A stretch of 55,987 nucleotides of DNA, counting the filler, from Dugesia japonica (Eukaryota), in assembly GCA_001938525.1 (NCBI GenBank). It is 6 parts of 6 records of this genome, joined end to end, with 100 filler letters (N's around TTAATTAATTAA, not from the genome) between each part and the next. Parts side by side here need not be neighbours in the genome. Positions count along the whole stretch, not along the records: positions 47,402 to 55,987 come from MQRL01624493.1; 5 more parts are not named here. One strand, written 5' to 3'. The position numbers were made by a program, and so were the translations under genes. Of this stretch, positions 47,402-55,245 are shown one piece after another (the stretch's first letter is position 1; each line of letters opens with the position of its first letter). The notes below the pieces were generated by a model. That model was not told where the DNA came from. It was given only the letters and a program-made list of their open reading frames with translations, and ran no database searches.

Positions 47402-47862
47402 TGGTTAGCCAAGTTTAATAATAATTGATTCTCGGTGGCGAGATGGTTTTTCTCAAACTGGGTATTGAACAGTTCTATTCTAAGGATTTGAGTATTTTCC
47501 TGTTCAATATTTAATTTATCTCTTAGCTCTTTTATTTGGGATTCTACTTCCTCGTATTTGGCTTTCCACATTCGAGCTTGTTTGATGGCGTTGACGTTCG
47601 CTATATTAGCATCAATATTGCTCTTTATATATTTTTTATGGGACTTGCAGGATCGTTTTTTGGTTTTCAGTTCTTGGTGAGCTCTTTCTACCTGATTTTC
47701 TAGCTCACTATTATATTTTTGCAATTGTAAGTTGGAGAGGGCATCTATTTTAGATTCGAGCTTCCATTTAAGTACTTCGGGTATAGTGGTGAGAGTTTTG
47801 GTTTGAATTTGTAGTATTTGAATTTCGTTACGCAAATGGTTTATCATATTTTCGTTGTTCAT
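47402..47862 (-). CDS. Accessory coiled-coil protein (at least 153 aa, runs into a gap)
   Basis: Heptad-rich open frame; CTCTCTCTGATTTTAG|AA ATG. Confidence 0.65.
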
Positions 47863-47945
47863 TTCTAAAATCAGAGAGAGTGGTTATTATAATAGAATTT
47901 CGATATATATATTATATACATTATTTACATAGTTTATTTTATTTA

Positions 47946-49142
47946 TCAATGAAATTGCACTCCCAACACCCTATGTACGATTAGTTTCCGACACATAGGG
48001 CATTCATTTAAATTTATAGCGCAGTTGTAACATCTTTTAAAATGTCCGCATGGAAGAAAGATAACTTCAATAGTTTCTTCCAGGCATGTGACACAATCAT
48101 TATCCTTTAATACCCATTCTTGTTCATATTTTACTTGTTGCCTTACTGGTCTAAGAGATTGTTGATATAATTCATAAGGTGTGCTTAATTCAGTCCCTTT
48201 CTCTATGAGTGTTTGTTTTATCAGTGGGTTGATATTTACTTGCTTGAATTTTAGGATATTAGTTAGTATGTTGGTCTGTAATTCAATTACCATTTTTGTT
48301 CTTGTAAGGGACGTATTCCATTCGACTCTACAAGTTGTTGTTGGTAATTTCTCCTCATCACTTTGCCTCGTCCTTGAACTGGTTTTGTGATGAAATATAT
48401 CCTTTGGCAATTTCTCTACACCTTTTAAGATCAGGGTTTTCTTTTTATATGTGGTGCATTTCATAATTTGGTTACTCGTTTGTTGAGTGATATATAATCC
48501 TGTCATAGCCTTTTTCATTAAGTCCGATGCTTCTTTAAAGGTTTTTTCTCTAGCTTTAATATTCCATATAAGATCCTTGGAAAATATTACTTCTGCCAGA
48601 TTCTTTATGATTCCGCAATATAATGTTTTCCGTTCCAGTGTTGTTTTCTCAGGTTCCAGCCTATTTCCTTTGATTGGCTGAATTTTATTATTTACATCTA
48701 GATATAATAGAAACGGACAAGTAGAAAACTATCTCTTGTGAGCTCTATTGGGTTTCTCGTTTATGCCCCATTTGCATAGGTTGCCTTGGCAGTATATACA
48801 TTTCACTTTATCTGAACGTTCTTGAGTGCCGGCGAAATAAAATCCAGATCTGGCTATATCCTCAATGAGTCCATGTAAATTTTTGGGTAAATCAAATAAG
48901 GATTTTGTTCGCATCCCTTCGTCACGATATTTATTGTCAAACACTTTCATCGCACTGTACAACACTTTGCGTCGTATAAGATTTTCTGGTGAGCCAAAGC
49001 TATTATGGTAATGCATTGTGTTTTGCACTTTTGAAATTTGCTTAACTTCATCTCGTCCTTGGCTCATGCGACATAATTCAATATATGGATCGTTCATTAT
49101 TAGTCTGGCCTCGATTATCGATAATTCCAGATCGAACTCCAT
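47946..49142 (-). pseudogene. Inhibitor of apoptosis (single BIR plus C-terminal RING), one in-frame stop at 48731-48729
   Basis: ORFs 48729-49142 and 47946-48518 share one frame. The BIR reads IARSGFYFAG...DKVKCIYC-x16-H-x6-C (RAHKR*FSTCPF). The IAP-type RING reads CVTC...VIFLPCGHFKRCYNCAINLNECPMCR. Confidence 0.92.
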
Positions 49143-49249
49143 TATCTACAATTATAGGTATGGTTGATTCTAGTTAGAATACTATTTATTTACATTAATT
49201 TTAATTAACAGTTTATTTATCATTTTTCTCAGTTTCTAAGTTCATATAT

Positions 49250-49933
49250 AGTTACTAGTAGATATTTACGTAAATAGTTTATATATTTTTTATTATATTT
49301 ATAATTTTTTCAACTTCCACTCTTCCATGGATTTTAGACAAAGCTGATTTGGGTGTGAGCACTCCGGGTTTTGAGTGTCTCGATTTTTCATATTTGTGAG
49401 TTTACCAATCCTTTGAGGTAATTTAGTTCTCCCGTCTGATTAGAGATAAGATCATGTTGTTTGGCTACTAACTCCATTGTGTAATTTTGTTTTTCTGTGG
49501 CAATTTCCAGCATTCGTCGATTTTCTATTATTTGTTGTCAACACATAAAGTTTTCCGCATATAAATTTTCGTTTTGTAATTGTATGATTTTATTTTTAAA
49601 TTCCAGCTCGCACCAATCTTGGGGTTTTATAGTTATTGGGGTTTATAATAATTGATTCTGGCGGTGTTCCAGTTCTTCTAATCGTTGTTGAGTCCATTGT
49701 GTTTGGACTTTAGCACTATTTCATAATTCTTTCATTTCTTCATTATGATTTATCCATATTTCGTTGATCGTCACTTGGGAAAAGATAATGTTATTATTAT
49801 TTATTGAGGTAATACTTCTTGCAGGACTACTACTATGGCTTGTTGTACTGGAACTCTCTATTTCACTTTGTGAGTACGTAGATTCATTTTCGCACTTATA
49901 TGAACATTCAATTCCATTTTCGATCTGACTCAT
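49250..49933 (-). pseudogene. Accessory Ser-rich/coiled-coil ORF with several stops
   Basis: TCTCATTCAG|AAAAA ATG at 49933. The frame continues past the 49721 stop with helical sequence (QQRLEELEHRQNQLL). AATAAA at 49217-49212 and 49190-49185. Confidence 0.55.
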
Positions 49934-52385: not shown

Positions 52386-52871
52386 AGCCCCGATTACAAG
52401 TGGTCAACGCATTTGATTATCTGAACCAAAAGATACATTTTTAAGGTTTTGTGGTACAATGATTGATTTATCATTAATCATAGATAATGTTTTTTGGGCT
52501 TGAGGCATTTGATTAGTGTTTGGTGCCTCAACTATTTTAGACATAATTAGTTTATTCGATAATTTAATTCCTTGGTGGCTAGTGCAATATTTCCAGTGTC
52601 CATGTTTTCGTTTCCGATTTTACTATGAAACTCCTGACGTGAAGCCAAGCTATCTTTCATTTTCCTTTCTTTTCTTTGTTTGCCTGCATACTTTAATGCG
52701 CCATCTTTCAATAACCTCGTTATTTTCTGCTACTATGTTTCTATCTTTTCATCGTCTTTTGGTTGCATGTCCGTTTTCCATTCCGAATTTACTTCTTTCT
52801 CCGTTAGTTCCCTTCCCCATTTTCTTCAGACTCAGCGTCCTCGCTGAGACTTCTTTTCCTTAATAATGATT

Positions 52872-53360
52872 CTAGACGACTCCATGGCGGAGGGTCAACT
52901 GGTTTAGACCATAATACCATACTATTAATATCGTATGGAAATTTTCAATAGCTCGCGTGAGAGTTTCGTTATAGATGCTGACACAACGTTCGCATAGGGT
53001 GTGTACCTCGTTCTGCTCCAATGGTGCTTGAACTGTCAACTTGTCATGCATTTTCGTAAATCTTCTTCTACTAAGTTCGTCTTGTTGTAACAACCAAAGT
53101 CTGCGCCCAGCGACTTCCCGTAATGCTGTTTTTAAAATTGATTGCATTTTCCGTATGCATGTCAGGCAATTGGCCTCCATTAGTGTTGGTGAGATTGGGC
53201 ATGTCACTCGAAAAAAGTGAGCAAAACAGTTTTCTGGTACTGGTGTCTGTGTTCCTCTTGGAATTATACGATATAGTGTTGTGATACCCAATGCTTTAAC
53301 TAAATGGCTTAACTGACTTAATACGAATACTGGGATTGACGATTTTCCGAGTATCATCAT
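52872..53360 (-). CDS. Unknown Cys/His domain, copy 1
   Basis: 162-aa ORF directly after the integrase C-terminus, with two CxxC pairs. Confidence 0.65.
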   Translation of the reverse strand: MMILGKSSIPVFVLSQLSHLVKALGITTLYRIIPRGTQTPVPENCFAHFFRVTCPISPTLMEANCLTCIRKMQSILKTALREVAGRRLWLLQQDELSRRRFTKMHDKLTVQAPLEQNEVHTLCERCVSIYNETLTRAIENFHTILIVWYYGLNQLTLRHGVV

Positions 53361-53419
53361 AGGTTGTTTTGATCATAATGTGTAACTATGCGATATATTT
53401 AGCTTTTTTCCGTATTTTC

Positions 53420-55245
53420 CTACTTACGTGGTCTATTGGGACCTCTGTGTTCCGTCGCAGTAGGAGCATTACTTGTAGTTGGTGTAATTTCCTCCGTCAA
53501 TGCGGCCGTTTTACATAAGTTGGCGTGGTATATTTTAGGTTTCTCTAAAGGAATTCCTTTTATCCGCACTTTGAGATTGGTTTCGGTTACCTCGATTACT
53601 TCGTAGGGCCCTTGCCATGGCCATTTTAATTTCGACGTAGTCGAAATATCAGGTAAATTGATCAATACCATGCGCCTTTTTTAAATGAATGTTGTAGGGC
53701 AGTTTTATCGTGCAAATCTTTTTAACTTTCTTGGTAAAATCCTTCGTTCTCCCTGGCTTGTTTCCATATTTTCTGCATAGTTTCTTTGGAATTTGCAGCG
53801 AAATCCGTTTCGTCTTGATATTGCGTTATAGGTGGCTGAAACTCTAAATCAATTGGCATGTTGCATTCATTGCCATACATTAATCTGAATGGTGTGTATT
53901 TAGTAGCTGGATGCACACTCATTCGGTATGCAAATAAACATAGTTGAATATGTTTGTCCCAATTATTCTGTTCCTTCTGCGCATAACTAGACAGCATAGT
54001 AATTAAAGTTTTATTAAATCGCTCTGCTAATCCATCTGTTTGTGGATGATAAGGTGAGGTTCGTAATTGACGTATTTTAAGGAAACTTGATACCTCCGCC
54101 AATATATTACTCATGAAGTTTTTTCCCTGATCAGTTAATATCTTCTTCGGAGTGCCATAACGACTGAAGGATGTCCGTACCAGTATGTCTGCTATAGTTG
54201 TGGCCTTTTGATTTTTCATTGGAAACGCCTCTGGGAATTTGGACAAATAATCCATTATGGTAAGTATGTAGACATTTCTGCCCAGTGTTGGTGGTAGAGG
54301 TCCAACTACGTCCACAGCTATTATCTCCATTGGTGCTGCAGGTACTGCGATAGGCTTTAATAATGCTTTCACTCGTTTGCACGTTCCTTTCCTGGCAGCA
54401 CATATTTGGCATTTTGCAATCCACTCCTTTACTGATTCAGTCATGTGTGGCCAGAAATATTTCTGTCTTAATTTTGACTCGGTTTTCTTATGGGACATGC
54501 GTACTCCTAGTACTCCATTGTGATATTGTTCGAGTAGTTTATTCCTTCTTCCCTTAGGAATGACCAAAACAGTATTTTCTCCGTCTTGTGCAATCAAACA
54601 TCCTTTGGTAAGTGCATAATGGCCACCGTTTTTCTTTAGGTGCTCTTTCAACTTGGGTTCACATTCCAACTTCTTTAAGTTGTAGCTCTCCATATATTTC
54701 ATGATGATCTTGATTTCTTCATCATCCGCCTGTGCTTGCTTCAATTCATCAAAGTTTCGGTCCTCCGCTAATATGAAATAGACCGTTCCTACTTTCTTTT
54801 CTAATAATTCACGTAGAGTGAATTTTTCCGTATCTTCCGGAATACTTTCTGTAGCTTCTGGTCCACCGATCCTTGACAGGCAATTTGTATTAAAATTGGC
54901 CTTACCAGTTTTAAATTTTAATATAGGACAATAATCCTGCATTGCCAGTTGCCATTCTATTCAATCGTAATGGTTTCTGAGCCATGAATGTGATTGGTAA
55001 GTGATCCGTATAGATTAGCACCTCATGCCTTTGTATCAATGATCAGAAATGTTTAGTGGCCTTTACTATTGCCATGATTTCTCGTTCGGTTGTGCTATAA
55101 TTTAGTTCAGCTCCTTGGAATTTCTTGCTGAAGTAAGCGATCACTCTCTCTCCTTTGTTCATCTAATTGACTTAATACGGCACACATCGCGTAACCACTA
55201 GCGCCAGTAGCTAATATGAATGGCTTTTTGAAATGTGGGTGCTTG
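53420..55245 (-). pseudogene. pol: Gypsy pol: RNase H, integrase (Zn finger, DDE, GPY/F)
   Basis: PFILATGASGYAMCAVLSQ, VIAYFSKK...NYSTTEREIMAIV, YTDH; KYFWPHM...CQIC; IAVDVVGP...ILTDQGKNF...PYHPQTDGLAERFNKT; WQGPYEV. Confidence 0.95.

Follow-up and report, generated by a model that had tools for sequence, protein, structure and literature searches.

A stretch of 55,987 nucleotides from the planarian Dugesia japonica (assembly GCA_001938525.1), six parts joined end to end and here called the window, contains on its minus strand, from 55244 to 47402, the remnant of a retroelement in which about 6 kb more of coding sequence lies behind RNase H and integrase. This copy is the decayed, 5′-truncated rear half of one giant retroelement. 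We read it, with a probability of about 70%, as the 3′ half of a single copy of a giant Ty3/Gypsy element of Burro type, which belongs to the GAG-ENV-POL lineage and is multicopy in its AT-rich host. The genes behind the integrase are multicopy, linked and selected, and so are the element's own cargo rather than flanking host genes. Anti-apoptotic cargo is a known Burro theme; what is new here is a duplicated Cys/His domain, paralogs A and B, and a group of tail open reading frames (ORFs) led by splice-acceptor-like sites.

The element, its copies and its relatives

The pol remnant begins with a Ty3/Gypsy RNase H at 54963–55244 (minus strand, like all coding features of the element below; Pfam RT_RNaseH, E 7e-19), which is truncated at its 5′ side and crossed by frame changes and stops. 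The integrase lies at 53725–54960 and has a damaged zinc-binding domain and a D-D(35)-E core (Pfam Integrase_H2C2, E 2e-15; rve, E 4e-14). Its C-terminal GPY/SH3-like module is in another frame, at 53423–53680 (BLASTP E 1e-7 to protein P0010 and seven other relatives). Identity of the integrase to proteins P0004–P0011 is 41–46%. An RNase H followed by an integrase with HHCC, DD35E and GPY modules, the zinc motif being damaged here, places the element in Ty3/Gypsy (Metaviridae). Of the pol named in the original prediction, the window thus holds RNase H and integrase; no reverse transcriptase (RT), protease, long terminal repeat (LTR), gag or env remnant was found within it, and the preserved part is 7.8 kb only. 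In tblastn with the relatives, homology begins at 55244, and a 47-bp tandem repeat at 55247–55355 (no strand) marks the junction that cuts the element's 5′ side. At the other end, a spacer at 47302–47401 (no strand; 44 N, 12 nt, 44 N) hides the 3′ end and its LTR, so the left end is not an element end. Five identical 100-base spacers of this kind, with a 12-mer that has stops in all frames, occur in the window at 9657, 20450, 30023, 38655 and 47302.

The order behind the integrase is paralog A, a linker, paralog B, a membrane-protein ORF, an accessory ORF, an inhibitor of apoptosis protein (IAP) and a coiled-coil ORF. From 53422 to 47402, stop-free stretches of at least 120 amino acids (aa) make up 59% of the minus strand and 0% of the plus strand, with 8% or less in 100 shuffles. 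A codon model that had learned from the ORFs of the element itself found the right frame in five of five leave-one-out tests; it backs the frames first proposed and is weak around 50700–50300. The coding run had been described as about 6 kb without interruption. Its extent on one strand holds, but stops and frame changes break it, as do three AT-rich spacers of 86–159 nt; these lesions and the 5′ truncation agree with the earlier statement that the copy is decayed.

Other copies tie the array together. Part of the stretch is contained in 7 of the 24 sequencing runs listed, all under one organism label. Two DNA runs (X1 and X5) and two RNA runs were aligned at 82% likeness to 8.6 kb of the window. 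On this segment the DNA runs placed 9,214 and 9,217 contigs, mostly 82–95% alike, and covered 30 of 30 bins. The summed depth of the accessory bins, a figure that gives no copy number, was 122–13,785 (X1) and 41–9,615 (X5) versus 3 for the window-identical contig, which excludes single-copy genes. Divergent contigs bridge the integrase and its C-terminal domain (CTD; 53652–53936), the CTD and A (53225–53545), and A and the linker (52561–52900). Among the 15 of 103 joints that were listed, deletions in other copies bring together the CTD and B, B and the membrane ORF, and the membrane ORF and the IAP. Up to 36 divergent contigs per site cover the IAP and coiled-coil bins. The DNA-run alignment bore out neither of the two refuting conditions, namely that other copies of the integrase lack the downstream ORFs or that the IAP and coiled-coil genes are single-copy host genes, and the claim that the accessory ORFs belong to the element is upheld.

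The same alignment indicates that the cargo was under purifying selection while the family spread. This copy departs from nearly all others at 40 listed sites, tool-chosen out of 1,238; 37 are in ORFs, with codon positions 1, 2 and 3 hit 18, 16 and 3 times (p 0.0004). In the accessory ORFs alone, 3 of 28 are at third positions (p 0.006), and all ten in the IAP are at positions 1 or 2. Since the sites that are invariant in the other copies are amino-acid-changing ones, they point to purifying selection during the spread of the family and to decay in this copy. Of 1,592 and 1,749 million letters in the RNA runs, only 26 and 35 reads matched, nearly all of them partial and located at a poly-T stretch or at a repeat beyond 55400. 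The copy itself is dead; judged by these two RNA runs, its family seems to be silent.

The relatives, cited here by locus (L) or protein (P) number, are giants, with ORFs of up to 3,735 aa. An integrase search yielded 216 long proteins, and eight of the 120 listed stand out at 41–46% over full length. An integrase alignment retrieved 79 metagenome loci, one viral locus and 60 genome-bin loci; in viral contigs the integrase alone found no locus and the alignment one distant locus. Eukaryote-type Gypsy contigs (L081 and other loci) also occur within prokaryotic genome bins, probably as host contamination. The integrase tree groups the window with 15 relatives (support 98/93); this tree drops eight long-branch rows, and its “giant” group was named after the matches had been seen. 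The group has support 96 in a tree of the top 30 full-length matches of 120 loci plus 19 proteins, and 91 in a tree from an unfinished careful search with 71 rows (70 of 119 usable proteins). In L005, L006 and P0129, a Monjiviricetes_fusion domain (PF24664, E 1e-83 to 1e-94) is located between gag and protease-RT, which puts env between gag and pol in all three relatives with enough upstream sequence; the window's own upstream region is lost. A CCHC gag is present in L006 and P0129, ankyrins follow the integrase in L002 and L003, and L006 has a weak ubiquitin-like match (E 0.0025) after gag. The grouping with giant elements and the Burro-type layout of three relatives support the original prediction of a giant Burro-related Gypsy element. 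As a separate observation, extra aspartic-protease-like copies occur before RT and after integrase in L005 (2–10279), L006 (97–11205), L001–L003, P0006, P0008 and P0011.

Burro elements carry env in frame between gag and pol, matching mononegavirus fusion proteins, together with ankyrin, ubiquitin-like, BIR and Smc motifs (PMC6431247). The present element is like Burro/GYPSM1 in its Gypsy RNase H–integrase and in the BIR cargo that it carries. Its apoptosis-regulating cargo (BIR and RING) accords with Burro, BCL2 not being seen in the preserved part, and its nearest relatives share with Burro an env in frame between gag and pol, ankyrins, a ubiquitin-like module and polyproteins of more than 3,700 aa. 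Unlike in Burro, the IAP is a separate tail ORF, the A/B pair is not among the listed motifs, and the preserved part of this decayed copy has no MATH, BCL2, ankyrin, dUTPase or env. The available passages of PMC13524379 describe six Schmidtea mediterranea GAG-ENV-POL elements (Smed_errantivirus_1–6, 14.5–18 kb) with a gB-type ENV, and leave tail cargo (ankyrin, apoptosis, exonuclease or accessory genes) undescribed. The env sequences of L005, L006 and P0129, relatives by integrase grouping, share motifs, by eye, with the six ENV rows given there; the window itself is without env. Excerpts of two further papers mention Burro for its size only (PMC11410931, PMC13238120). Burro elements exceed about 30 kb in total and have LTRs of several kb, against the 7.8 kb preserved here.

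Paralogs A and B

Paralog A (52875–53372) is a helical Cys/His domain with two CxxC pairs. It is followed by a charged linker (52404–52874), coding-like in the codon-bias scan but broken, and by paralog B with a helical tail (51786–52403). Comparison of the two sequences gives 40 identities in 129 positions (31%; BLASTP E 9e-25) and a score of 202, versus a maximum of 69 in 1000 shuffles, and both have H-x5-C, two CxxC pairs and a final F-H. The two paralogous Cys/His domains of the original prediction are therefore real.

No homologue of A or B was found by the word-index search (0 of 37 candidates), by a HMMER profile (0 matches in 1.84 billion proteins), by a metagenome scan (0 of 168 candidate stretches) or in NCBIfam. 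The best Atlas score was 0.81, below lead level; PDB and Pfam gave chance-level matches only, with zf-AD (E 0.29) a weak lead at most. A single fold search returned 0 matches at E ≤ 0.001, and the AlphaFold model was unusable (pLDDT 37). A TAZ-like resemblance was dropped, having no Pfam support. No account of the domain surfaced in literature searches, a weak negative given that the primary Burro papers were missing from them.

Because A and B precede the signal-like segment of the next ORF and have no acceptor-like sites, they are probably cytosolic parts of a polyprotein. In L001–L003 the corresponding slot holds ankyrin or protease-like modules. As a tentative suggestion, A and B may be cytosolic zinc-binding helical adaptors that occupy this slot, with zinc held by the CxxC pairs, a putative property read from the sequence alone.

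The membrane protein and the tail ORFs

Hydropathy, codon bias and sequence predict a type I membrane protein at 50063–51647. Its parts are a signal-like segment (51518–51462; Kyte–Doolittle hydropathy 1.75), a Cys-poor ectodomain, a transmembrane (TM) segment (50221–50165; 2.94) and a PPSY motif (50098–50087). The PPxY motif is a WW-domain and late-domain motif. The ORF, of about 540 aa, has 5 Cys and 3 sequons; it was read in two frames with six stops, and its frame is uncertain around 50600–50300. A furin-like RRKR site was dropped, as the frame there is probably different. Comparison with fusogens in Pfam, PDB and Atlas gave no F-type or gB-type match, and the AlphaFold model was unusable (pLDDT 34).

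In the relatives, pol continues in frame into a signal-like segment, an ectodomain, a TM segment and a proline-rich tail (six of the eight nearest proteins; L001–L006), with PPSY in P0004 and L001 and PPSF in L006. This extension is present also in relatives that have an upstream fusogen. Among the relatives, the ectodomains of P0005, P0009, P0010, P0006, L002, L003, L005 and L006 consist of related beta-rich repeats of about 90–100 aa that belong to no Pfam family and that we take, by eye, to be fibronectin-III-like. The window's ORF shares the topology and the slot of these extensions, and it is best read as the accessory membrane protein of the clade; it is very probably not the fusogen. 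It had been called env-like, a label that is not supported: the protein is Cys-poor and without a fusogen match, and the PF24664 fusogen of the nearest relatives is upstream of protease. The env label should belong upstream, in the lost part. The suggestion that the element was possibly infectious is plausible only through such an upstream env, absent from the window and inferred from the relatives. Some gB-type fusogens need attachment partners.

Three tail ORFs follow. The accessory ORF (49302–49950; ATG at 49933) encodes a Ser-rich and then helical product, has several stops, and has an acceptor-like site 5 nt before its ATG. A hydrophobic stretch at 50008–49940 lies before this likely start codon and was treated as non-coding. 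The IAP (47946–49147; ATG at 49142, with YAG 3 nt before it) is free-standing and comprises one BIR, a linker and a C3HC4 RING. The coiled-coil ORF (47402–47866; ATG at 47862) has an acceptor-like site 2 nt before its ATG and runs into the spacer. Two coiled coils had been predicted. By a crude heptad test, the terminal ORF is one (1 of 60 shuffles scored as high), but the ORF before the IAP, read from 49933 to 49302, is not supported as such (50 of 60 shuffles). The terminal ORF shares the motif [AS][RK]xWKxKY with tail ORFs of L005 and L006 (pairwise E 0.002); this motif, chosen after the fact, has three matches in 140 loci against 0.06 expected.

The BIR-RING assignment of the original prediction is borne out by Pfam (BIR, E 5e-13; RING, E 6e-12, with the single stop read as X). 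The BIR ligands C-x2-C-x16-H-x6-C together with a C-terminal C3HC4 RING identify an IAP, broken in this copy by one in-frame stop inside the BIR; 72 PDB sequences match at E ≤ 0.001. In ligand pattern and C-terminal RING it is like cIAP1/2, XIAP, BIRC7 and DIAP1. Unlike cellular and baculoviral IAPs, it has a single BIR and a long unrelated linker and is borne by a retroelement. The searches for homologues found none among 1,243 candidates and six viral stretches, a result that reflects the limits of the search rather than absence. The BIR+RING region of Burro1 protects planarian stem cells from caspase-mediated apoptosis, according to the available part of PMC13465017, which cites Lee et al. 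2026. The present IAP differs from this B-IAP in the stop within its BIR and in that no expression was seen in two runs. The anti-apoptotic gene that was predicted is thus present, but as a theme it is not new.

In place of the IAP, relatives have exonucleases. One or two DEDDh/RNase_T exonuclease ORFs stand behind pol in L001 (5011–6525), L002 (7268–10371), L003 (6861–9920), L005 (10617–12104) and L006 (12085–13470). Pfam identifies them in L002, L003 and L005, and weakly in L006; the rest are from BLAST, and one paralog each in L002 and L003 has no Pfam match. Judged from sequence, they are possible anti-RNA-silencing cargo.

An acceptor-like site was defined as YAG 0–7 nt before the first ATG. 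Such a site, at 2–5 nt, is found in 3/3 tail ORFs of the window and in 0/3 of A, B and the membrane ORF. In the relatives, 8 of 12 tail ORFs have one, and in four of them the AG directly abuts the ATG; among internal ATGs the figure is 63 of 357. A stricter rule that adds a pyrimidine tract keeps two of the window's three and gives 7 of 12 in the relatives versus 12 of 357 internal ATGs (p 2e-7), a p-value that overstates the case because the rule was set after seeing the sequences and the relatives are not independent. Excluded from the count are L004:7344–7748 (the next element's gag), L006:809–1192 (which overlaps gag) and L081:3962–4654 (a polyprotein continuation). The pattern suggests that the tail ORFs are expressed from separately spliced or trans-spliced subgenomic mRNAs, and it fits both cis-splicing from an LTR leader and spliced-leader trans-splicing. 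The latter occurs in flatworms and resolves polycistronic RNAs, as stated in an excerpt of PMC8629364. No account of acceptor-led tail ORFs surfaced in the literature searches, again a weak negative for want of the primary Burro papers.

We propose that the element replicated as a normal LTR retrotransposon, whose gag, gB-type fusogen, protease and RT would have been in the lost upstream part. Because the relatives have single long ORFs, pol would have continued through A, B and the membrane protein as a single polyprotein, to be cut by the element's protease. Within it, A and B might conceivably have acted as the adaptors suggested above. The membrane protein would have had an accessory role at the surface or in budding, and its PPxY tail may recruit NEDD4-type WW-domain ligases. 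It is somewhat likely that each of the three tail ORFs had a spliced mRNA of its own for translation, made with the acceptor just before its ATG. The BIR-RING protein, by analogy with Burro1, quite probably would have blocked caspase-driven death of the cells that expressed the element.

Alternatives and implications

It is a substantial possibility, though short of an even chance, that the copy is a decayed member of a planarian family that already has a name (Burro-2, -3, -4 or one of Smed_errantivirus_1–6), the arrangement having been annotated already. BIR, ankyrin, Smc-like coiled-coil and env motifs have been noted for Burro1–4, and decaying Burro fragments are on record in D. japonica itself (PMC6431247); for S. 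mediterranea, the accessible text of PMC13524379 lists the six elements described above. Burro1 is an unlikely identity if the host is S. mediterranea, since BURRO1 is abundant, active and PIWI-silenced (PMC8532177, in the part available), versus almost no RNA reads at 82% and contigs mostly 82–95% alike here. The Burro review, moreover, places the BIR among the ORF1 domains (PMC6431247), but here the IAP is a separate tail ORF. We consider it improbable that the membrane protein is, after all, the env of a GAG-POL-ENV element with an unrecognised fusogen. Its type I topology and position after pol would suit an env, the basal branch of the window means that an upstream env need not be shared, and decay and uncertain frames weaken all searches with this ORF. 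The few Cys and sequons and the lack of a Pfam, PDB or Atlas fusogen match argue otherwise, as does the RRKR site, which falls where the frame probably differs. Env-bearing relatives have a membrane protein in the same slot besides their fusogen, and the passages of PMC13524379 at hand report flatworm env-bearing elements only as GAG-ENV-POL with a gB-type ENV. That the IAP and coiled-coil ORFs are host genes, or parts of a second element, that flank or are mis-joined to a Gypsy fragment is very hard to credit. The sequence does contain five spacers, no long read crosses the array, and splice acceptors would equally fit host exons. Against this stand the up to 36 divergent contigs per site, the deleted copy, found in both DNA runs, in which the IAP adjoins the membrane ORF, the strand and codon bias that continue through the array, and the same WKxKY motif and acceptors in tail ORFs of relatives.

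Several observations weigh against our reading of the stretch as the rear half of a Burro-type element with its own cargo. The two DNA runs may come from the same strain, and one is perhaps the window's own source, so that they are maybe not independent; neither has a contig that spans the whole array, and in other copies the coiled-coil ORF is linked only to the spacer behind the IAP. The tool's choice of the 40 difference sites and the after-the-fact acceptor rule have been stated above, and no splice-junction reads are among the 26 and 35 RNA reads, which are mostly partial. The window integrase is the deepest branch of its clade, and the env-bearing relatives (L005, L006 and P0129) all fall in one subclade, so env in the window's family is inferred only. 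The link to Burro runs through the env of relatives compared by eye, the trees containing no named Burro sequence. The 140 related loci have no A/B homologue and no BIR or RING motifs, with only 4–8 kb behind the integrase covered for L001–L006. Finally, the window ectodomain has no significant similarity to the relatives' extensions, and a profile scored weakly only at the TM-tail.

The window has other contents. At 55400–55987 (minus strand) is a high-copy repeat with few RNA reads and no Pfam match, whose translation resembles, by eye, a Penelope-type RT. A second, unrelated decayed integrase fragment is at 1–760 (plus strand; tblastn E 8e-6); behind it come a purine tract and TG, where an LTR likely starts. 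At 6132–9098 (minus strand) a host exon encodes 988 aa, among them one C2H2-like finger (Pfam E 0.008) and a motif that we take to recall ZNF608/609. Two unassigned minus-strand ORFs lie in a 41% GC stretch at 13325–14245, and an intronless multi-TM ORF, claudin-like by eye and without a match in the protein collection, is at 19708–20259 (plus strand). There is a gag-like fragment at 20552–20805 (minus strand). An element of about 2.6 kb at 22719–25360 resembles a non-autonomous DNA transposon, with sub-terminal tandem repeats making up its inverted arms. The ORF cluster at 27077–29843 (minus strand; no Pfam match for the two tested) resembles Maverick/Polinton capsid-type genes, judged by eye, and we take 31265–32553 and 44248–45400, also by eye, to be decayed hAT-like transposase fragments.

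Under the reading that we prefer, the decayed rear half of a Burro-type element, the finding carries the Burro theme, retroelements that keep host cells alive, over to a family whose cargo set differs, and shows its clade exchanging cargo at fixed slots. Selection has maintained the A/B domain, a family not characterised before. The acceptor before each ATG provides a concrete hypothesis, open to test, for the translation of genes that a giant LTR element has behind a very long ORF. It is tempting, if rather speculative, to picture a clade with an operon-like 3′ cargo bay, in which interchangeable host-manipulation genes, an IAP here and DEDDh exonucleases and coiled-coil proteins in relatives, would sit behind acceptors and be freed from a polycistronic RNA by the host's spliced-leader trans-splicing, while the polyprotein tail would carry a new zinc-binding family and an attachment or budding partner of a gB-type fusogen. 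If spliced leaders are indeed used, the retroelement would have the organisation of a eukaryotic operon.

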